Below, one piece after another: positions 5,044 through 38,810 of a stretch of DNA of 63,828 nt. The translations under genes and the position numbers were made by a program. Source of the stretch: a virus (Duplodnaviria; Caudoviricetes); IMG/VR virus record IMGVR_UViG_3300020044_005158, positions 1 through 63,828 of that record; one strand, 5' to 3'. Within the stretch, counting starts at the first letter, position 1. The number at the start of each line of letters is the position of its first letter. The notes beneath the pieces are model-generated. The model ran no database searches, was not told where the DNA came from, and worked only from the letters and a program-made list of their open reading frames with translations.

Positions 5044-8000
5044 ATGAACGAAAAAGCACTTCAAGACTCGTACAACATATTCAAAGCTCAGGGATACAAT
5101 AAATCTATTGAGGAGTATAAGACGTTATTAAAATCTAACGGAAACGCACTGAATGACTCTTATAAATTATTTAAGTCTAAGGGATATAATAAGTCTATTG
5201 ATGACTATAAAGTATTGATGGGAGTAAGTGGTGATCCTGTAAAAAAAAAAGAACCTACGGCATCAGTTTCTCCATCAGGTCAAAAACCTACTTCATCGGT
5301 TACTCCAGCCAAGAAGGCGCAACCGCAATCGGTATTTTTGCAAGACGCAGATACTGGAGGTAAGCTAGAAATACTTACTGGATATCCACAGAAAGAAGAT
5401 ATAGAATATAACTTTGCTAACGGTCAGTGGAGAAAAAGAAAACCCGGTCAAACATCTTGGTACAACATAACTAACGAGGGATCCATAAGTTCTCTTAATA
5501 AGTTCTTTAATAAAGAAAAGATTCCAGATAATAAAAAAAGTGTAGACCAGCAAGTAAGAGACCTTGAGGATTTAAGAGAGCTATCAGACCAAGAAACAGC
5601 TGATGCATTAGGGTGGTCATTAGAAGACCTTCAAAAAGCAAATAAAGGAACAAAGGTAAACAAGGTGAAAACTACAGGTGCTACTGTAGCTCCTAATATT
5701 ATCGAAGGAAAAGATGCTATATCAGTTCAAGCAAATAGCATAGCTAAGGCAAGAATAGAACTTGGCTCATCTGCAAATCAAGAAAAGATAAACGATAGAG
5801 CTAAATATCACGAAAATATAAATCTTCAGAAATATTTAAAGAACAAAGGGTTTGATGTAGATGTAAATGGAGATATCGAAAGTGATAAAACAAAGTCAGC
5901 TCTAGATAAGTTAAAGGCTATAGAAGAACTTAATGAAATAGAAGATGCAAACAGAAGTAAATTCATATCAAAAATAAATAGCGATATAACATCTGACATG
6001 TTATCTTCTCCTGAAAGTATTGATCAATTGAGATCAGAATTTTCTAAGAATGGATATGTATTTGAATCATTTGGTGGATCTATAGCTGGATTAGGAGTTG
6101 GATCTGGTAGGTATATAAAAGTAAAATATACCTTACCTGATGGTACAGAAACAAGAGAAGAGACATTCGATACATCTGATCCAGAAGCCAGTCGTAATAT
6201 GAGACTATTTATGTCTCAAACATTTATGAGTAAATCTGAAAAGGAGGCTATTATTGGAGGTGATGCACCTACTGACGAAATGGGAAGATTTGAGTATATG
6301 TCTTCTCTAGTCGGAAAAATGGCGGCTAATCCTAGTAAGTACGGAAGAACACTTGTATCTGATGAGTTTATTTCTAATCATATGAAAAGTACTTATCAGT
6401 ACTTGAAAGATGAACAAACAGGAATATCATTAGAATATGATAACTTAAAAAAGAGAATAGATCAATTTAAACTTAATCCTACAGAAGAAGAAAGACAGCT
6501 TATTAATAACAAAGTCCATGAAATATCTGTAAGGGAAATTAAGTTAAATGGACAATACGAAAAAGCCAAAGAAACTGAAAAGAATTTTTCTTCAATATCT
6601 GCAGCTTATGCAACTGAAATGGAGAAAAAGGGGGGATTTTTCACTGGATTAACAGCTCAATTTGCTAAGGGTGTTACTAGTATACCAAAAATGATGTTGA
6701 CCACGTCAGCAGATATACTTCCATATGTAGTAGATGCAGTAGATCCTATCACAAAGAATAGATTAAAAAATGATGGGTATTCAGATTCTGAAATAGCAGA
6801 CTATGCCTCAAAGGAACTAAAAAATACGGTTGTTAAAGAGATAGAGAAAGGAGTAGTAAACATAGGATCATTAGGTCAGACTACTGAAGAGTATTTACAG
6901 TCAGAAGATAGAGGTGTTTTAGAAAACACATTAGGATTTTTAGCTAATAGTATTGGGACTGGATTAAGTGGAGGCGGTAATGGCGCATTAACTAAACTTG
7001 CATTTTTTAGTCAGTCATATAATGGCATGTCAGATCAGATGACAGGACCTGAATTTGATAGGTTAACAGAGACAGAAAAGAAACTAATATCTGTACCTTA
7101 CGCATTGGTTATAGGTGGACTTGAAAGACTTGGATTTAAGTTTACAACGAGTACGAGTAAGAATCCTTTATTAAATAAACTAATAAATAATACTATAGCT
7201 AAGACATTTTCTGGCATACCAAAAGATGCATCAATACAAACAATTAATAGAGCTATATCGGAGAGTTTAACAGCTACTATGGCTCAAGCTGGACTAAGAG
7301 TAGTAGGTGGATCTATAGTAGAGGGAGCAGTAGAAGGCTCACAGCAATTAGCTGAGATATCTATAAAGAATATAGCTAACAGAATAATTGGAGAGGATGA
7401 GGATGGATTTGACTTTTTCAAAGATGTACCAGACATAACAACAGCTGAAGGAATTAAGGAAGCGTTAAAATTAGCGTCTGTAGATGCTGCATATGGCGCA
7501 CTAGGGGGTGCTATTATGTCAACTGGAGAAAATGCTGTCTCATCTATTAAAAATTATGGAATTAAGAAAGAACAAGAAAAAGATTTTTTAACGTTAAGAG
7601 CTACCCTTCTTGATGGTAATCTTAGAGCACTTCAAGATTTAGATATAGAAAGAAAATTATCTTATGGAGAGATCACTCAAGAAGAAGCGGATGAGATGAC
7701 CAACTCTATGAATAATGCTACATCAGCATTAGGAAAAATACCTGAGGGATTATCTACATCAAGAGCAAGAGAGTCTTTTGGTCTTTTGATTGAAAGAGAT
7801 AAATTAGAGCAAGAAGTTAAAGGTAAAGACGAAAACCTAGTTGTAGCTCAGAAGGAAAGAATTAAAGAAATTAATAACGAATTACAAACAATAAGCAAAG
7901 ATGCCGTTCAAGAGCAAGCAGCAGGTGAAGTTTCTGTACAGCCAGAAGCCACAACTAGCGAAGAAGTGGTCCAAGGAAAACCCAAATCAGGACCTGAAGT

Positions 8001-11000
8001 CGTTACCGAAGAAGGTAAAAAAGAAGAAGTAGATAAGAAAAAATCAGATAGAATATCAGAAATACAATCTATTTTAGCTAATGATGATGCTAAATTTGCT
8101 GAAGAAGGTCAAAGACCTTTACTGGCAGAGGCACGAGCTGAGTTAACATCTGAATTAGAAGGATTAAACCAAGAATCAACTACTAAAGCAGCTCCAGTTG
8201 CAGAAGTATTTGAATTTAATGGTAAAAAATACGAACTTACTAATGAGTCTGTAACAGATCTTGAAACAGGTAATCTTGTTCCAATTGAACTAGCTACACA
8301 AATTCGTGAAGAAGGAACTGTCGCAACCGAAGCTAACCAAGAACAGGTAGCAACCTTAAGAGCACAAGAGCAAGTAGAACTAGCTGAGGCTATACCTAAC
8401 ATAGACGAATATAAGGTTGATGGGAAGGTAGCCAAAAGTACTATGCCAGCTGATGTTTTGGCTAAGTATGAAGAGATATACGATAGGTATGACAAGCTAA
8501 TAACTCCTTTGTTAACTACTGCACAACCTATCACATCTAAAAATCAAGTCACTCTAGATAACTTCCAAGAATTAGAGAATCAAGCCGTACAGGAAGGAAA
8601 CGATACAAAGATAAAAACGCTTCGTGCTGCAAGAATGGTTGTAAAATCTCTTCCGGGAGTAAAGGTATTCATCCATAACTCACCTGAGGAGTACCAGCAG
8701 GCGTTAGCAGATGCATCTGGTGATTCCATTGATACTATCAAGTCAGAAGAAGCATCAGAGCGTTCATCCGGACAGTATGTAAATGGTGAGATACACGTTG
8801 ATGGAAGTATTGCAACAGAGCGTACAGTATACCATGAGGCATTCCATGATGCAATCCTAAAATCAGGACTGTCAGTAGAGATGGCTAAAGGGCTTCTTAA
8901 GATTATTTCAGACAAGAAAATCAAGTCTCAACTAGAGGCATTCATTAGTCAGTATGAGTCTAGTGAGCAGAATGAAGAAATGGTTGTTGAGCTTGGAGCT
9001 ATCATGGCTGAAGCAGGGACTGAATTGTCTACTACTAAACTTCAGCAGTTTAAGCAGTTAATAAATAAGTTAGCACAGAAGTTAGGACTTCCTGTAATGC
9101 TTCCAGCGTCAGCGGATCGTCAGCAGGTTGTTGACTTTATTAATACCATGTCGAAAGCAATTCGTACTGGACGTGCTGTTGATCTGAATATAAAAGGAGC
9201 AAAAGACAAGACAGGTATTACTGAAGAAATAAATCCAACTGCACCTGACACTGGTACAGGTGTTGATACATCATCATTAGAGAATAGAAAAAAATCTTTA
9301 ATACAAAACCTTGGGTTAGTAAGACAAAAAGAAATAACTCAAAGATTAAAGACTGGAATAAAATTATCAGATTTAGGAAGAGTAATATCTCACTTAACAT
9401 TCTCAGATAGACTTGTTACTGGAAAAGTTGGAGATAAAGATTATCTTGGAGGTATATTATTTGCAGCTGCAACTAATAGAGTATGGGCATCATTCTCTAA
9501 AGGAAGAGTTAGTTCTATAATAAATGGAATGCCTGTCAATAAGGATGGATATAGATATCTAATGCCAGCATTACTCACTGAACAATCTCACATGTCGAAT
9601 AAGGACATGATGAATACATCTCTTAAATTAGTAGAAGATGCTGTAATAAATGGAGATGTAGATTTTAACTCTGCTAACGACAGAATAAGAAAAGCATTAA
9701 ACAGAAAAGGACTAGAGAAGTATCTTGAAATATATAACAAATCTATTGGTGATAATATAACAGCTAAAAGTGTAAAGAATGCTATAGATGAGGCTATTGT
9801 AAATAGCGATAGTACATTTGAAAATAGAAAAACATTCTTAGAGGCATTACTTGGAAAGGCTGATATAGATCTAACTAAAAGATTTGGGAATCTTCCATCA
9901 TTTTCTGAATTAGCAAATGGACTTGCTGAACCAATAACAGAAGGACATGAATATGGTGATATACTTTTAGTTATAAGAACTAAGGGTAATCTTATTGCTG
10001 TTCAACCAAAAGAAGGAGATGCAGATTACCATCCATCTTATCCTTGGGTCATCAGATCAGTAGATGAAAATGGAGATATTTCTGATGTTGAAACATTAAT
10101 ATTTGATAAATCTTACAATGCTATAAATGTATTTCCTAAGGTAACAAATAAGATTGGTAAAACATTATCATACCAAGATTATGTTAACAAGTATGGAGAT
10201 AAAGCAAAATCAGCATATCTTGGATACATAGGAGGTAGATCAACTATGTCTACATCTTTGACTGAAGAAGTAAATATTGAAGCTGAACAAAAAGAAAAAG
10301 TAGCTGAAGTTTTTAAAGGCAGAAAGAAAAGAATGACTGAGCCAGTTGCTGGAAATAAATTATTCAATGAGCCACTTAGAGACGCGTCAGTTATTGCTAA
10401 AAAGTATTCAGAAAAGTCTGGAATAGAGTATGTTACTGTAGAAAAGATATCAAAGCTAGACGAGTCTAACTCTAAAGAAATTGCTGCTGAATATGATAAG
10501 ATGAAGAACGATCCTACCAATCCAGAGGTTAGGAAAGCATATGATGCAATGATAAAAGAGACTGCTGATCAGTATGAAGCAATACTGGATGGCGGTTATG
10601 TTGTTGAGGTTAATAATAATGAGCCATACTCTAGCTCTGAGGATATGATACAAGACCTTCGTGATAACAAGCGAATGAAAATATTCTCTACTGAATCTGG
10701 ATTTGGGGATGATCCAATTACTGACGAGCAAAGAGCAGAGAATCCATTACTACAAAAAACAAAGTACTCAGATGTAAATGGAATTCCATTACTAGCTAAT
10801 GATTTATTTAGATTTGTACATGACTTCTTTGGTCACGCAAAATTAGGAAATGGATTCGGACCTATTGGAGAGGAGAATGCATGGAGAGTTCATTCTGTTA
10901 TGTATTCAGATTTAGCTAGAAGAGCTATGACATCTGAGACTAGAGGTCAAAATAGTTGGGTTAATTTTAGTGGAGCAAATGACGCTGTATTTAAATTAAG

Positions 11001-14000
11001 AGATAAGGCTAGAGCTCTTCGTAAGGAAGGAAAGATAGATGAGGCAAATGAGTTGATTGGTCAAGTATATGACGAGATGCAGTTTGCTGAACAGAAGGTT
11101 GGACTTATGCCTGAGTGGGTGTCAGAGACTGCACCTCGTAAAAAGCAAAAGTCTGGTGGAAAGAAAGTAACTGCCCAAAAAGTAAATCAGTCGTTTAAGA
11201 ATCCTGTAAAGAAGGTGATTGTGAATGACCGTACTGCCTTAAGAAATCAACTAAGACTTGAGGCTAGGGCTGCTCGTGAGTCACAAATGGACTTAAAGCA
11301 GAAACAACGTGCATTAATTGTGGCTATCAATAAGATGAAGCGAGGTGGACTTATTACGGTAAATCAGGCATCTATACTTGCTAAAAGACTAGCGTTCGTT
11401 AATGTAGACAATCCAATAATGATCGAGAGATTTTTAGGATACGCTGATAAGTTATTTGCAGATGCTGAATATTCAGCTAAACTTAATTCTGCATTTGAGC
11501 TACAAAAAAAGATAAAGAGAGCTATAAAATCTGATAAGCTTCAAGCAAGTGTTGTAGCTACAGCGAAAGCATTTTCTAAATTGAATCCATCATTAGTTGA
11601 GGATATTGATACATACATTGAGAATGCTGAAAAGGTAATGAACGCAGTTAAGTCGTCTCGTGCAAACGTAAAAGATGGTGTAGATTTAGATAATATTATT
11701 AAAGGCAAAAAGGCAGATATTGCTATTGAATTAAAGACTGCAATGGACTTTAATGAGATTGGTGAGTACACAGATAAAGCTATTGAGTTAGAGAATGAGT
11801 ATAGAAAGAATGAACTAATGTCTATCTACAAGGACTTATCTGATGCAAATATTATCACTAAAGAAATGTCTATCGAAGAGATGAAGGAAGTGATTACGTC
11901 AGTTATGAATGAATCTAAGGATAAAATGCCAGCAGAAGAAAAGCTTGCATACATTATGTCTTGGCTTGGAAGTACTGCAAATGTATACCGTCCAATCATT
12001 AAATCAATGCTTAATGGACGAGATCCGTTTACAGGTGATGATGTAGTTCTTTCTGAGAAGCAGGATCAAATAATTCGTAACTTCCTAAAAATAGATGTCA
12101 CTAAGATGGATGTTCGTGAGGCAATGTTTGTAGTTGAGGCTATGGATAATTTCATTACAAATAAAATCACTGATGGACTTGAGACTGTAATAGCTAAATA
12201 TGAAGGAAACTTAGAAGCTAAGAAATTATCTGATTCAGGATTCAAGACTAGATCCATGAATACATTTGGAAATGAAAAGTCTAAGTTAGGTACTGGTAGG
12301 TTATGGGCGCAAGAGATGATGTCATTAAAGACATTGACTGACTTGGTATTTAGAGGTGTAAATAACGCTCAGAAAATAACTAAGGCAATGGGTCTTTCTG
12401 CATACGAGAATGGAGTAGCACTTGCAAATAGATTATGGAACAACAGCATTGATTCATACTATAACGAGTTCAAGAAGACAAAACCGAATGGAGAAAAGTT
12501 TATGTCAGCAAAAAATATATACGAAAGAGGTATGTATGCTGCACTTAAAAGAACTATTCCGGGAGATCAGAAAGTACAAGATGCTGAATTAAAAAGAAAG
12601 ATTAAGCTAATCAACGACAGTATTTCCACATTGATGAAAGGATCTGAAAGAGATCAAGATATTGCAAAGATGTACTCTGAGGTTGCTGAAAAACTTGGAA
12701 TAAACGAGTCTGGAGTTACAATGCTGGATATAGAGTCAAGAGTTGATTCAAACAATATGAAGGCTGTAGACTGGTGGGTTAGTAAATGGGCTGATAACTA
12801 TAGCGAACTAGCTGATGTAAGTCAGAACGTTTACAATACAATCCTTGATAGAGATATGTACTACACACCTGATAAGTTTTCTAGCACAAAGCCAGTAGAG
12901 AAGTCAGTAGAAGAAGTATTTGAATCAGGAGGTGCATTCGGACAGTTTTTAGATTATGAGTACGACAAGAAATCTGGTGTATTAATGCCTTCAGCAAAAC
13001 AATCATCAATGGCTGAAGGAAGATTCTTGGACCTTAATTTCGATATGAATAACTCAAAATCTTTGAAGGCTGCATTGGTTGACATGAAGACGGCTACATC
13101 CATTCGTAAAATCAGCGGATTCTTAAAGTCAAAGGACTGGGAGAAAGTGATGACGGCAAAAGAAGATAGAGATGTATTCAGAAAGAAGATTGATAACTAC
13201 ATACTTCGAAGCAGAAATAAATCAACTGGTGCAATCGATAATGATTACGCACAGGCATTAGATAAGGCTGGTAAGATTTGGGCATCAATGGGAGCTGCTA
13301 GAGCATTAGGTGGATTTACTCAGCCATTAAAGCAAACGATTCCAGTATTAATGAGTACAATCATTAACTCAGGAAGAGTTGATTTTGCTATAGGTAAGGA
13401 TCAGAATGATTGGATTAGTAAAATAGGTAGAGGGATATCAAACAGAGGGCTTGAATCTCAGGCTGGATTTGAGGATGCAAATAGAATGATGGATGATGCA
13501 GCAAATAGTGGTAACGCTGTAAAGATATTGGCTGCAATAGAAAAATCTAATAGGTTTGTTTTAAGAGCAGTTCTTGCGAAGCCTGACGTATTTATAGCTA
13601 GATCATCTTTCATATCTTACTACAAGCAGTATATGGCTAATAATGGGATGTCTGAGGATATTAATTACTCAAAGCCAGAAGATGCAAATCAAGATGCATT
13701 GGATTATGCTCAACGAATGATTGATCGTCAGCAGAACGTATCTGATGGAGATTTAGCTGGTGAATTTATGTCATCTAATAAACCATATAAAAAATTAGCT
13801 AAAAATATATTATTACCATTTGCTTCATTTGTGATTAATCAGAAGTCAAGAATGTTTACTGATTTCGCAACACTTATGGGTAAGGAGGTATCAAGTCAAG
13901 ATAGAGTATTAGCTATTAGATCATTAAGTGGATTAGCCGCTGAAATTGCTGTATTTAACGCTATAGCATTTGGTATAAAGGCAGGTGTAATTGCAATAGC

Positions 14001-14850
14001 TGGAGAAATAGTACCTCCAGCTCCAGAAGATGAAAAAGAAAAAGAAAAAGAATTATGGAAGCAGTGGGGGTATATTATTGGAAACGTAATTGCAAGTATT
14101 ATTTCTCCAGTTCCATTTACAGATAGTTCTGTAATATCATCTTCTGACTGGGTATATAAGCAGGTAAATAAAATTGCCAAAAGCTCTAGTGGTGAGACGA
14201 AAGAGGCTCTTAAGAAGCATAATGAGGAGAGAGAGTTAAATGGTCAGAGACCACTTGTAGGTAGAGAGGCTGATAGATGGATGGAGAATCATCAGGAAGA
14301 AGATCGATTTAAGATTCGTGCGTATACTAATGAAAACATGGCTGGTACGTATACCATTACATATAATAAATTAGTTGAACTTAAGAAATCATATAACCTA
14401 GCATTCAATGGTGAGTACGAGCAAGATATGTATGGTAAGGTCCAGAAGAAGTATATTCTAAAGGAAGATAGAGACGTTCTTAAATACATGTGGATTGGAA
14501 ATGCAATAACTAATATTGCAGGATTCCCGTCAGAGTATAGCTCTGTAAATAGAAGAGTTGAGAATAACGTCAAGAAGAAGAGTGCAATTTCAGAAAAGAA
14601 ATTTGATACATACAATGATGTTGTTAGCCACAAAGGAGGAGAATTAAATAAGGCAGAATTGTTCTTGGTAAAGAACATGGATGGAACTAAGTCTCAAAGT
14701 GGAACTGATCGTGTAATTGAAGAGATCGAGTGGATTAAAGAGAATGGAGGATTTGATAATGAACGTCAGATGGACAAGTACATTGAAATATATCAAAAGG
14801 AGAAGTCAGTTAGTTCGTCTGACATGTATGAGATTAAAAAAATAAAGTAA
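5044..14850 (+). CDS. Giant polyvalent virion/ejection protein (3268 aa) with zincin-like HExxH domain
   Basis: YHEAFH..EEMVVE motif; HDFFGH..GEENAW..SETRGQ domain; PG-binding-like LQKYL..GF..NG..T segment; tandem N-terminal repeat. Confidence 0.75.
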   Translation: MNEKALQDSYNIFKAQGYNKSIEEYKTLLKSNGNALNDSYKLFKSKGYNKSIDDYKVLMGVSGDPVKKKEPTASVSPSGQKPTSSVTPAKKAQPQSVFLQDADTGGKLEILTGYPQKEDIEYNFANGQWRKRKPGQTSWYNITNEGSISSLNKFFNKEKIPDNKKSVDQQVRDLEDLRELSDQETADALGWSLEDLQKANKGTKVNKVKTTGATVAPNIIEGKDAISVQANSIAKARIELGSSANQEKINDRAKYHENINLQKYLKNKGFDVDVNGDIESDKTKSALDKLKAIEELNEIEDANRSKFISKINSDITSDMLSSPESIDQLRSEFSKNGYVFESFGGSIAGLGVGSGRYIKVKYTLPDGTETREETFDTSDPEASRNMRLFMSQTFMSKSEKEAIIGGDAPTDEMGRFEYMSSLVGKMAANPSKYGRTLVSDEFISNHMKSTYQYLKDEQTGISLEYDNLKKRIDQFKLNPTEEERQLINNKVHEISVREIKLNGQYEKAKETEKNFSSISAAYATEMEKKGGFFTGLTAQFAKGVTSIPKMMLTTSADILPYVVDAVDPITKNRLKNDGYSDSEIADYASKELKNTVVKEIEKGVVNIGSLGQTTEEYLQSEDRGVLENTLGFLANSIGTGLSGGGNGALTKLAFFSQSYNGMSDQMTGPEFDRLTETEKKLISVPYALVIGGLERLGFKFTTSTSKNPLLNKLINNTIAKTFSGIPKDASIQTINRAISESLTATMAQAGLRVVGGSIVEGAVEGSQQLAEISIKNIANRIIGEDEDGFDFFKDVPDITTAEGIKEALKLASVDAAYGALGGAIMSTGENAVSSIKNYGIKKEQEKDFLTLRATLLDGNLRALQDLDIERKLSYGEITQEEADEMTNSMNNATSALGKIPEGLSTSRARESFGLLIERDKLEQEVKGKDENLVVAQKERIKEINNELQTISKDAVQEQAAGEVSVQPEATTSEEVVQGKPKSGPEVVTEEGKKEEVDKKKSDRISEIQSILANDDAKFAEEGQRPLLAEARAELTSELEGLNQESTTKAAPVAEVFEFNGKKYELTNESVTDLETGNLVPIELATQIREEGTVATEANQEQVATLRAQEQVELAEAIPNIDEYKVDGKVAKSTMPADVLAKYEEIYDRYDKLITPLLTTAQPITSKNQVTLDNFQELENQAVQEGNDTKIKTLRAARMVVKSLPGVKVFIHNSPEEYQQALADASGDSIDTIKSEEASERSSGQYVNGEIHVDGSIATERTVYHEAFHDAILKSGLSVEMAKGLLKIISDKKIKSQLEAFISQYESSEQNEEMVVELGAIMAEAGTELSTTKLQQFKQLINKLAQKLGLPVMLPASADRQQVVDFINTMSKAIRTGRAVDLNIKGAKDKTGITEEINPTAPDTGTGVDTSSLENRKKSLIQNLGLVRQKEITQRLKTGIKLSDLGRVISHLTFSDRLVTGKVGDKDYLGGILFAAATNRVWASFSKGRVSSIINGMPVNKDGYRYLMPALLTEQSHMSNKDMMNTSLKLVEDAVINGDVDFNSANDRIRKALNRKGLEKYLEIYNKSIGDNITAKSVKNAIDEAIVNSDSTFENRKTFLEALLGKADIDLTKRFGNLPSFSELANGLAEPITEGHEYGDILLVIRTKGNLIAVQPKEGDADYHPSYPWVIRSVDENGDISDVETLIFDKSYNAINVFPKVTNKIGKTLSYQDYVNKYGDKAKSAYLGYIGGRSTMSTSLTEEVNIEAEQKEKVAEVFKGRKKRMTEPVAGNKLFNEPLRDASVIAKKYSEKSGIEYVTVEKISKLDESNSKEIAAEYDKMKNDPTNPEVRKAYDAMIKETADQYEAILDGGYVVEVNNNEPYSSSEDMIQDLRDNKRMKIFSTESGFGDDPITDEQRAENPLLQKTKYSDVNGIPLLANDLFRFVHDFFGHAKLGNGFGPIGEENAWRVHSVMYSDLARRAMTSETRGQNSWVNFSGANDAVFKLRDKARALRKEGKIDEANELIGQVYDEMQFAEQKVGLMPEWVSETAPRKKQKSGGKKVTAQKVNQSFKNPVKKVIVNDRTALRNQLRLEARAARESQMDLKQKQRALIVAINKMKRGGLITVNQASILAKRLAFVNVDNPIMIERFLGYADKLFADAEYSAKLNSAFELQKKIKRAIKSDKLQASVVATAKAFSKLNPSLVEDIDTYIENAEKVMNAVKSSRANVKDGVDLDNIIKGKKADIAIELKTAMDFNEIGEYTDKAIELENEYRKNELMSIYKDLSDANIITKEMSIEEMKEVITSVMNESKDKMPAEEKLAYIMSWLGSTANVYRPIIKSMLNGRDPFTGDDVVLSEKQDQIIRNFLKIDVTKMDVREAMFVVEAMDNFITNKITDGLETVIAKYEGNLEAKKLSDSGFKTRSMNTFGNEKSKLGTGRLWAQEMMSLKTLTDLVFRGVNNAQKITKAMGLSAYENGVALANRLWNNSIDSYYNEFKKTKPNGEKFMSAKNIYERGMYAALKRTIPGDQKVQDAELKRKIKLINDSISTLMKGSERDQDIAKMYSEVAEKLGINESGVTMLDIESRVDSNNMKAVDWWVSKWADNYSELADVSQNVYNTILDRDMYYTPDKFSSTKPVEKSVEEVFESGGAFGQFLDYEYDKKSGVLMPSAKQSSMAEGRFLDLNFDMNNSKSLKAALVDMKTATSIRKISGFLKSKDWEKVMTAKEDRDVFRKKIDNYILRSRNKSTGAIDNDYAQALDKAGKIWASMGAARALGGFTQPLKQTIPVLMSTIINSGRVDFAIGKDQNDWISKIGRGISNRGLESQAGFEDANRMMDDAANSGNAVKILAAIEKSNRFVLRAVLAKPDVFIARSSFISYYKQYMANNGMSEDINYSKPEDANQDALDYAQRMIDRQQNVSDGDLAGEFMSSNKPYKKLAKNILLPFASFVINQKSRMFTDFATLMGKEVSSQDRVLAIRSLSGLAAEIAVFNAIAFGIKAGVIAIAGEIVPPAPEDEKEKEKELWKQWGYIIGNVIASIISPVPFTDSSVISSSDWVYKQVNKIAKSSSGETKEALKKHNEERELNGQRPLVGREADRWMENHQEEDRFKIRAYTNENMAGTYTITYNKLVELKKSYNLAFNGEYEQDMYGKVQKKYILKEDRDVLKYMWIGNAITNIAGFPSEYSSVNRRVENNVKKKSAISEKKFDTYNDVVSHKGGELNKAELFLVKNMDGTKSQSGTDRVIEEIEWIKENGGFDNERQMDKYIEIYQKEKSVSSSDMYEIKKIK
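7901..8032 (+). CDS. Nested small basic protein MPFKSKQQVKFLYSQKPQLAKKW... (43 aa), +1 frame inside the giant gene
   Basis: ATG after A-rich leader, TAG at 8030-8032; resembles the widespread phage MPFKS..Q..L....P..A..W small proteins. Confidence 0.7.
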   Translation: MPFKSKQQVKFLYSQKPQLAKKWSKENPNQDLKSLPKKVKKKK

Positions 14851-37223: not shown

Positions 37224-38810
37224 ATGATAGTCAAAAAAGTACATTTAGGTGATTCTGGACAGGAGAAACTAAAGAAAGGAATCAGAATATTAACGGAGGC
37301 GGTTGCTTCTACGATGGGTCCGGGAGGTCGTCCAGTAATTATGGAGTCCGAGCACCATGTAGGAGGCAAGACGATCACAAAGGACGGTGTGTCTGTAGCC
37401 AAGGCGGTGAATGTGTTTGATGCGACCGAGCAGTTGGGCATCACGATAGCAAGGGAGGCATCAGTACAGACGGCTACGGCAGCTGGCGACGGAACCACTA
37501 CAGCTTTGGTGATACTACAAGGAATGCTAGATGCAGCGGATGCACACCTTACTGACAAGCATAACGTCACTCAGGTAGTTCGTCACATCCACACGCTGAC
37601 GGACGATGCGATTAAGTTTCTAGACAAGAAGTCCAAGAAGGTAACGAAGAAGAAGTTAGATCAGGTGGCAACTATTTCTGCCAATAACGACCCGGAGCTA
37701 GGAAAAATGATCTCCGATTTGTTTGGGAAGGTTAAGATTGTAACTGCCGAGATTGGAAAGCAGCCGTTCGTTACTACGGAGATTATTGACGGGATGAAGT
37801 TCGACCGTGGATACGCGAACGAGTACTTCATCACGGACCAAGAGCGTGAGGTAGCGGAGCTAGATAATCCGTTGATTCTCTTGACTGACATGACGATCGA
37901 GAAGCTGGGTGGACACCTTGAGTCTATACTGGGTCCAATCATCCGTGAGAACAGGTCGTTACTAATCATTGGCAACATGTCTGATCAGGCTCGTGCGACA
38001 CTAGCGGCTAACAAGATGAAGGGGGTAATCAAGGCGGTTAACGTGATCCCACCAAACTTTGGATACCGTCAGAAGGAGATGATGAAGGACTTGGAGGTAG
38101 TTCTTGGGGCGAAGTACTACTCGGAGGAGACTGGAGACGGACTTCACAACATTACGCTAGACGGACTAGGTACAGCGAAGAAGGTAATTATATCGGCAGA
38201 CAGGACAGTTATCTACCGTTCAGATGAAATAGATCAGGAGCCACTAAACAATCGCTTAGAGGAGCTTAAAAGCAAGATGGCGTCCGACAAGACGTTAGCC
38301 GAGAAGAAAGACACCGAGTCAAGGATAGCAAACATTGAGGGAGGAGTTGGTATTGTGCATGTAGGTGCGCCATCAGAGATTGAGACGAAGGAGTTATATG
38401 ACCGAGTTGACGATGCTGTGCGTGCTGTAAGTGCAGCCATTCAGGATGGAATACTTCCGGGTGGAGGTGCAGCTCTGATGTATTACACTCAGAGAGGACC
38501 AGTACAGACGGATGAGAACAAGTCAGTTGCTGAGAGCATTTTTTATACTGCACTAGCGGCTCCATTCAATCGAATCATGCTAAATGCTGGGCTTCATCCA
38601 AGTGAGATACGTTCAAACATAATGGAGGTCGGTGACTTCGGGTACGGGTTCGACGTGAAGAACGAGAAGTACGGGATGATGGAGAAGATGGGAGTGATTG
38701 ATCCTACGATGGTAACGAAGAGCGCACTGAAGAATGCGGTATCTGTAGCCACTACGATCATGTCAAGCCAAGTAGCAATTGTAAATATGAGAGAGAATGA
38801 GAGCTTATAA
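37224..38810 (+). CDS. groEL: Phage chaperonin GroEL
   Basis: ITKDGVSVAK, GDGTTT, GMKFDRGY, RVDDA, PGGG, GVIDP. Confidence 0.95.
   Translation: MIVKKVHLGDSGQEKLKKGIRILTEAVASTMGPGGRPVIMESEHHVGGKTITKDGVSVAKAVNVFDATEQLGITIAREASVQTATAAGDGTTTALVILQGMLDAADAHLTDKHNVTQVVRHIHTLTDDAIKFLDKKSKKVTKKKLDQVATISANNDPELGKMISDLFGKVKIVTAEIGKQPFVTTEIIDGMKFDRGYANEYFITDQEREVAELDNPLILLTDMTIEKLGGHLESILGPIIRENRSLLIIGNMSDQARATLAANKMKGVIKAVNVIPPNFGYRQKEMMKDLEVVLGAKYYSEETGDGLHNITLDGLGTAKKVIISADRTVIYRSDEIDQEPLNNRLEELKSKMASDKTLAEKKDTESRIANIEGGVGIVHVGAPSEIETKELYDRVDDAVRAVSAAIQDGILPGGGAALMYYTQRGPVQTDENKSVAESIFYTALAAPFNRIMLNAGLHPSEIRSNIMEVGDFGYGFDVKNEKYGMMEKMGVIDPTMVTKSALKNAVSVATTIMSSQVAIVNMRENESL

Follow-up and report, generated by a model that had tools for sequence, protein, structure and literature searches.

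The window analysed here is the whole 63,828-bp DNA of the virus record IMGVR_UViG_3300020044_005158 (Duplodnaviria; Caudoviricetes). The record is a complete genome with direct terminal repeats and encodes terminase, portal and virion proteins as well as a GroEL-like chaperonin. The final gene of its rightward structural block (5044..14850, + strand), which comes after the virion genes within the same block, codes for a giant protein of 3268 aa; the Elemovirus relative of this protein carries the annotation "structural protein." Inside the giant gene lies a complete small open reading frame (ORF; 7901..8032, + strand), with an ATG start, 43 codons and a TAG stop. We consider this nested ORF to be a real, selected protein-coding gene, with a probability of roughly 85%.

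The nested ORF occupies the +1 frame relative to the giant ORF [(7901-5044) mod 3 = 1] and is present in one copy in the genome. Its product, MPFKSKQQ...KKVKKKK, comprises 43 residues, with 14 lysines versus two acidic residues. In the giant frame the overlapped stretch (7900..8034, + strand) codes for residues about 953–997, an acidic linker running from DAVQEQ to EEGKKEEVD; over the nested ORF it reads ...ISKDAVQEQAAGEVSVQPEATTSEEVVQGKPKSGPEVVTEEGKKEEVD..., with the acidic stretch DAVQEQAAGEVSVQPEATTSEEVV... over the nested bases. The sequence of this linker is dictated by the small gene. The putative initiation region of the nested gene (7881..7900, + strand), which is also coding in the giant frame, is A-rich and contains no Shine-Dalgarno sequence. 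The A-rich leader ACAAACAATAAGCAAAG is located at 7884–7900, and a TAA stop two codons 5′ of the nested ATG (7892..7894, + strand) closes the small frame. The ORF with its start, stop, frame and 43 residues, the A-rich leader and the acidic linker are all as given in the initial annotation, which had proposed a dual-coding region that arose through uptake of a pre-existing gene into the giant ORF.

Viral contigs were scanned with an alignment of the small protein, which yielded 282 relatives, 80 of which were kept. Once the window and two GenBank records are counted in, a nested ORF inside a same-strand ORF of at least 700 aa is present in 41 loci, representing 40 distinct DNAs, and in every case the small ORF is in the +1 frame relative to the host ORF. 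Codon-position and dN/dS analyses were performed on 35 distinct gap-free nested copies. The entropy at positions 1, 2, and 3 of the small-frame codons is 0.39, 0.185, and 0.849, respectively. At a nucleotide identity of 80.2%, the copies are on average 83.7% identical in amino-acid sequence when read in the small frame and 55.0% when read in the giant frame, and the small-frame identity exceeds the giant-frame identity in all 595 pairs. The Nei-Gojobori dN/dS ratio is 0.08 (dS 1.34) for the small frame versus 3.5 for the giant frame, so that frame-specific selection favours the small frame, in agreement with the dual coding claimed initially.

A control domain taken from the same giant genes shows the ordinary pattern, with the third codon position being the most variable and the identity of the +1 frame being higher in none of 3160 pairs. 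The nested ORF forms an island of conservation (0.2–1.1 bits per site) between flanks of the giant gene with about 1.2–1.8 bits, as measured in 32 loci with full flanks. Deeply diverged copies, with about 40–50% identity, retain the residues characteristic of the family and the start, and their frame is closed by a stop 36–84 codons on. This conservation in relatives, comprising the third-position variation, the dN/dS ratio and the island, indicates that the nested gene is real as a coding sequence.

The host frame is open over the small ORF in all 65 distinct nested copies, each of them +1 relative to the host, versus none of the 26 free-standing copies, in which the host-like frame contains 4.8 stops on average. 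For the third frame, open copies number 16 of the 26 free ones versus 4 of the 65 nested ones. Stops in the host frame come from a T at the third position of a small-frame codon followed by AA, AG, or GA, and changes that are silent in the small gene remove them. From the genetic code, the nested copies have evidently been recoded at silent sites in a way that keeps the giant frame open; this frame stays open because the third codon positions of the small gene avoid stops in it. Together with the small-frame dN/dS of 0.08, the difference between nested and free copies indicates that both frames are under selection. The giant frame reads the nested bases as a tolerant acidic inter-domain linker.

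The initial annotation described the product as a small basic protein usually found as a stand-alone phage gene, and stand-alone homologues do exist. A protein search returned 19 small homologues of 41–54 aa (E-values from 6.8e-15 to 0.059), all beginning with MPFKS. Residues M1, P2, F3, K4, S5, and Q8 are invariant in 35 sequences, of which at least 90% also retain P17 and A20; the nested peptide has this whole core, plus W23 at an aromatic position and the basic tail. PHROG 1375, which shares the MPFKS..Q..........P..A..W core and differs in that the window copy is nested in another gene rather than free-standing, is matched by 23 of the 35 aligned family members (best E-value 6.5e-7). A profile of the 35 members detected 4368 cluster representatives at E ≤ 1e-3, including 669 at E ≤ 1e-10. 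Among the 150 representatives listed, the module begins at residues 1–3 in about 134 (hand count), and protein lengths range from 46 to 980 aa: 32 are up to 60 aa long, 53 fall into the 61–99 aa class, 54 into the 100–299 aa class, and 11 have 300 aa or more. In the fused forms the module precedes diverse, mostly unnamed regions; for 10 such proteins Pfam gave DUF5661 in three and nothing else, and PHROGs gave phrog_1375 alone. Judged by sequence, this is a very large uncharacterised phage family, whose members occur elsewhere as a free-standing small gene, in many cases within clusters of head or portal genes, or as an N-terminal module of larger proteins.

A tblastn search with the peptide against phage records matched 83 records, 68 of them Flavobacterium Elemovirus genomes. 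In every Elemovirus match listed, the giant "structural protein" is the only annotated feature over the match, which bears out the suggestion that gene callers would miss the nested gene. The genome of Flavobacterium phage vB_FspP_elemoC_14-1A (locus L001) contains a 42-codon nested ORF at 6001–6129; its host, a giant ORF relative to which it is in the +1 frame, extends over 3256 codons or more and reaches the locus end. Compared with the window, the start of this nested ORF is identical, its stop is at the corresponding site, and two compensating two-codon indels lie between the two sequences. The homologous linker of podovirus MW202828 likewise holds a nested +1 ORF for the same protein. In these phages, and in dozens of metagenomic relatives, the +1 frame of DA(V/I)Q(E/K)Q linkers is open and codes for the same protein.

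Free-standing copies, 26 of which occur among the fetched loci, include those of Synechococcus phage S-CBS2 and phage C75C1, where the homologue is an unannotated ORF between annotated genes. The S-CBS2 copy (within the gp045–gp046 region, 3687–4435 of L003) is located in an unannotated 143-bp gap of the capsid gene region, flanked by two other small, very basic proteins. A tblastn search with a free-standing member, P0024, matched seven Streptomyces phage records only, all annotated as "hypothetical protein" or "peptidase." A blastn search with 3 kb around the site against phage records gave no match.

Several observations weigh against this coding reading. The main selection analysis drew on loci that had been retrieved by means of the peptide itself. 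Another 80 loci were sampled via residues 1780–2000 of the giant protein; 12 of them were cut too short to judge, and a recognisable nested copy is present in 29 of the 68 assessable loci, always in the +1 frame and 840–1270 aa from the host start, and absent in 39. No copy was detected elsewhere in five of five genomes without a nested copy, four of which are at least 90% complete. The signal is weaker in this sample: among 25 distinct copies, with a nucleotide identity of 60.5%, the differences at small-frame positions 1, 2, and 3 are 0.40, 0.32, and 0.46, and amino-acid identity is 49.5% in the small frame versus 35.0% in the host frame, in alignments that were guided by the small frame and so favour it. 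The match of the nested peptide itself to PHROG 1375 is weak (E = 0.0019; peptide residues 3–28, profile positions 17–42 of 70), and no Pfam family was found for it or for its 35 relatives. Contigs from three metatranscriptomic runs match only 7834–8034 and, in two runs, parts of 8329–9000, with 90–99% identity; those that fit partly continue unlike the window, and their source is relatives of this phage. The lack of contigs over the rest of the window is uninformative. Such RNA-library contigs cannot show transcription or translation of the nested ORF, the translation of which we infer from sequence.

Since over half of the related giant genes are without it, the nested gene is dispensable; it is an accessory gene, not an essential one. 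One of the 39 loci without the gene (L163) carries a broken copy, with MPFKSKKRK followed by a stop near host residues 966–978 and the C-terminal half (MLNQPKVYKKWKQKYG...) near residue 1202; the halves, about 230 codons apart, both lie +1 relative to the giant ORF. Another locus (L114) has a degenerate nested copy (MEYKS...), in which the tryptophan is replaced.

With respect to origin, the dual-coding part of the initial claim stands, and the absorption of a pre-existing gene by the giant ORF is plausible but unproven. The family extends well beyond the nested copies, which favours a pre-existing gene. The split-gene intermediate was not found, as only L043 was matched when the giant protein was searched by tblastn against 44 other loci (L002, L003, and L043–L084). 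The tree of the 43-column module requires nine changes between the nested and free states by parsimony (mean of 49 after shuffling), with well-supported branches forcing one change only; with so few columns and poor resolution, the number and direction of origins are not countable from it.

Two other accounts, which concern the origin only, are possible, with the odds clearly on the other side: the small gene could have been overprinted in the giant linker and later escaped to become free-standing, or one ancient dual-coding cassette could have been shuffled between unrelated hosts. The nested +1 arrangement also occurs in hosts without detectable similarity to the window giant outside the overlap. 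These include a family of about 390 aa (L050, 9871–11043; L072, 4085–5305; L077, 2303–3469; L084, 9871–11037), where the nested gene lies 43–62 codons from the host N terminus, a 2665-aa protein in L075 whose end is DarB-like, a host of 1376 aa in L080, and in L081 a host of at least 1153 aa in which a histidine-phosphatase domain closely follows the overlap. The same relative frame in at least five unrelated host contexts, counting the window-type giants, speaks for these accounts. The many stops of free copies in the host-like frame also weigh against simple read-through absorption, which would need several simultaneous changes, and the single change forced by the well-supported branches of the module tree points the same way. 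However, the family extends far beyond the nested state, as shown by its 4368 representatives and by the module position at residues 1–3 in most of the 150 listed, and is found also in cyanophage and Streptomyces phage records. The nine changes required on the poorly resolved tree, and the distribution of nested copies of homologous giants over several subfamilies, each nearer some free copies, argue likewise against a single cassette or an escaped gene. The proteins of L050, L072, L077, and L084, which are about 390–407 aa long and mutually 46–49% identical, have no PHROG or Pfam match.

At 5605–5637 of L001, 396 nt upstream of the full nested ORF and in the same frame, there is a truncated second start, MPFKSKKLMK followed by a stop. 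DAVQKQ consequently appears twice in the giant frame of L001, on either side of an additional segment of the giant ORF. This doubled cassette start looks like an insertion by recombination at conserved cassette DNA and, with the split copy of L163, it hints that the conserved DNA is used in recombination; both cases fit the shuffling of a cassette. In a more speculative version, which we consider rather improbable, the 130-bp stretch would be a portable dual-coding cassette that serves as a basic-adaptor gene, an inter-domain linker and a recombination patch, has spread in the same frame between unrelated virion-packaged hosts, and codes for a product, the module also found at the head of many other phage proteins, that helps to load giant proteins or DNA into the capsid.

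The conserved island could, alternatively, be a nucleic-acid element, such as a structured RNA, a promoter or a recombination site, with the +1 frame as an untranslated by-product. The island is sharply bounded, it is the only stretch of the region matched at 90% or more by the contigs of relatives, and the repeated cassette starts around inserts suggest recombination use. A nucleic-acid element would not, however, account for variation with a period of three that peaks at the third positions of the small frame, for a dS of 1.34 with a dN/dS of 0.08, or for the residues, start and closing stop kept by copies of about 40–50% identity. Homologous free-standing protein genes exist, no Rfam match was found, and the predicted folding of the start region is not stronger than that of shuffled sequence (z = 0.91). 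This explanation is very unlikely, and a nested protein-coding gene remains the preferred reading.

The context of the nested start agrees with initiation of the type described for Bacteroidia. In Flavobacterium johnsoniae, whose mRNAs are without Shine-Dalgarno sequences, initiation is raised by A at -3, -6, -12, and -13 within an A-rich motif at -14 to -11, and AUG is depleted near starts (Baez et al., 2019; PMC6847099). The nested starts were scored for A at six positions: -14, -13, -12, -11, -6, and -3. The window has A at -3, -11, -13, and -14, a score of four out of six. Among the 35 copies, A is found at -2 in 31, at -3 in 28, at -11 in 29, and at -13 in 31. The mean number of A at the six positions is 4.46 for the nested starts versus 2.24 for same-phase sites of the same giant ORFs, 2.25 for 3387 other +1-frame ATGs, and 3.21 for the giants' own first ATGs; the observed mean was reached in none of 20,000 random draws. 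No other ATG occurs in the region from -20 to -1 across the 35 copies, versus 14.1 expected, which fits the AUG depletion near starts described in the same report (PMC6847099). The sequence 5′ of the nested start is not conserved; its composition is. In the window genome an SD-like tetramer precedes 2 of 60 genes, and GGAGG is found instead in a few distant copies (L025, L037, L075, and L080).

The start ATG of the nested copies is invariant. The nearest upstream in-frame stop of the small frame is 0–24 codons away in the 40 nested loci, being directly before the ATG in L006, and an alternative upstream start is present in only one of the 40. Since the small frame is closed so near upstream, the peptide can be made only by initiation at the nested ATG. 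No conserved promoter was found for the nested gene. Ribosomes would start independently at the ATG at 7901, probably on the messenger RNA of the giant gene itself, by means of an A-rich, Shine-Dalgarno-less start signal of the Bacteroidia type kept inside the giant frame.

Programmed frameshifting, either as a slip from the giant frame into the +1 frame or as a -1 slip at the lysine tract that would fuse the module to the C-terminal two thirds of the giant protein, is a still weaker alternative to such independent initiation. The small frame in the window ends with GTA AAA AAG AAG AAG TAG and contains an A_AAA_AAG heptamer, where a -1 slip returns to the giant frame, and in-frame fusions of the module to the N terminus of larger proteins are common in other phages. 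The heptamer is, however, present in the tail of only 3 of the 65 distinct nested copies, and a comparison of the host proteins with 65 fused-form proteins showed no similarity. Closure of the small frame upstream of the ATG rules out entry from the giant frame. On these grounds the frameshift fusion was rejected.

The length of the nested ORF is within chance expectation: a +1-frame ATG ORF of at least 43 aa appeared in 75% of 1000 synonymous-codon shuffles of the giant gene, and the gene contains an unrelated second +1-frame ATG ORF of 45 aa (11909–12046, + strand). What exceeds chance is homology and conservation. Among the seven alternative-frame ATG ORFs of at least 30 aa in the giant gene, the nested ORF recurs in 96 of 160 related loci, 80 of which were chosen using the nested peptide itself, and the other six have 0–1 matches each; a functionless chance frame in a Lys/Glu-rich linker is accordingly of negligible probability. 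The ORF at 11909–12046, with no match in the 160 loci, is such a chance ORF and serves as a negative control.

For the product, AlphaFold2 with the family alignment gave helices at residues 6–15 and 17–26 and an unstructured lysine tail (mean pLDDT 82). The nested protein is thereby predicted to be a two-helix hairpin with a Lys-rich tail and a strongly basic character. It contains no cysteine and no hydrophobic N-terminal stretch. The free copies sit start-to-stop against the upstream gene. Ten neighbours of free copies were scanned and seven could be named, five of which are portal, adaptor or virion proteins. Our best guess, held with low confidence, is that the nested product could be a small basic accessory protein that is made alongside virion proteins and binds either nucleic acid or a component of the virion or of its assembly. 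On the other side, there was no sequence match among solved structures at E ≤ 1, the BFVD fold search gave uncharacterised phage proteins only, none at E ≤ 0.001, the ESM Atlas gave unnamed clusters, and the remaining two of the seven named neighbours are ribonucleotide reductases. The sole trace of DUF3008, in the ESM Atlas, was a 0.85 lead found in 15% of the members of one cluster.

In phage lambda, Rz1 is encoded wholly inside the +1 frame of Rz and is a lipoprotein with a lipobox cysteine. The window locus resembles this pair in that the small gene is complete, from start to stop codon, and lies on the same strand and in the +1 frame of a larger phage gene. There is, however, no sequence relation, the host is a 3268-aa virion protein with the overlap in a linker, and the family of the embedded gene, mostly free-standing, extends far beyond the host gene. 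Identity as an Rz1-type lipoprotein was ruled out by the lack of a cysteine, of a signal sequence and of a hydrophobic N-terminal stretch.

Overprinted genes are known in small viruses, for example B within A and E within D of phiX174. As in these cases, one base stretch in the giant gene is read in two frames, one constrained and one tolerant. In classical overprinting the embedded frame is young and narrowly distributed, whereas the embedded gene here belongs to an old, widespread family and the enclosing frame is an unconstrained newcomer over this stretch, with an apparent dN/dS of 3.5. The usual picture of gene overlap is in this respect reversed: the embedded frame is old and strongly selected, and the enclosing giant frame is tolerant. 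Overprinting has been reviewed (PMC8227390).

The hosts of the nested genes also resemble the polyvalent virion-packaged proteins (Iyer et al., 2017; PMC5512222) in being very large and modular and in lying among virion genes; the DarB-like end in L075 and the histidine-phosphatase domain in L081 are of this kind, and the giant protein of the window is at most a candidate member. A term search of that article gave neither "overlapping" nor "linker" (0 occurrences each), and its lone "reading frame" passage concerns neighbouring cassettes, not embedded genes (PMC5512222). Within the text available, literature searches gave no account of this nested gene or the MPFKS family, nor of genes embedded in giant proteins such as those described here.

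The nested ORF adds a hidden gene, missed by current annotation, to widespread aquatic podophages, apparently of Bacteroidota. The ORF further provides a natural case of a Shine-Dalgarno-less Bacteroidia start signal written within another coding frame. One base change can abolish the small protein and leave the giant protein unaltered, and Flavobacterium sp. BAL314 and Elemovirus phages are in culture, providing a tractable test system for an uncharacterised family with thousands of members.

The giant protein has a sole PHROG match, phrog_3170 (function not assigned; residues 1812–1977), and no Pfam match above the cut-off. Downstream of the overlap it carries a HEAFH motif of the HExxH-like type at residues about 1285–1295 (window positions about 8890–8920), which, by its sequence, may be a metallopeptidase-type site of the polyvalent-protein kind; the motif is present as HEIFH in the Elemovirus giant protein. 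The GroEL-like chaperonin is encoded by a full-length gene at 37224–38810 (+ strand), matching phrog_5725 with an E-value of 5.7e-119.

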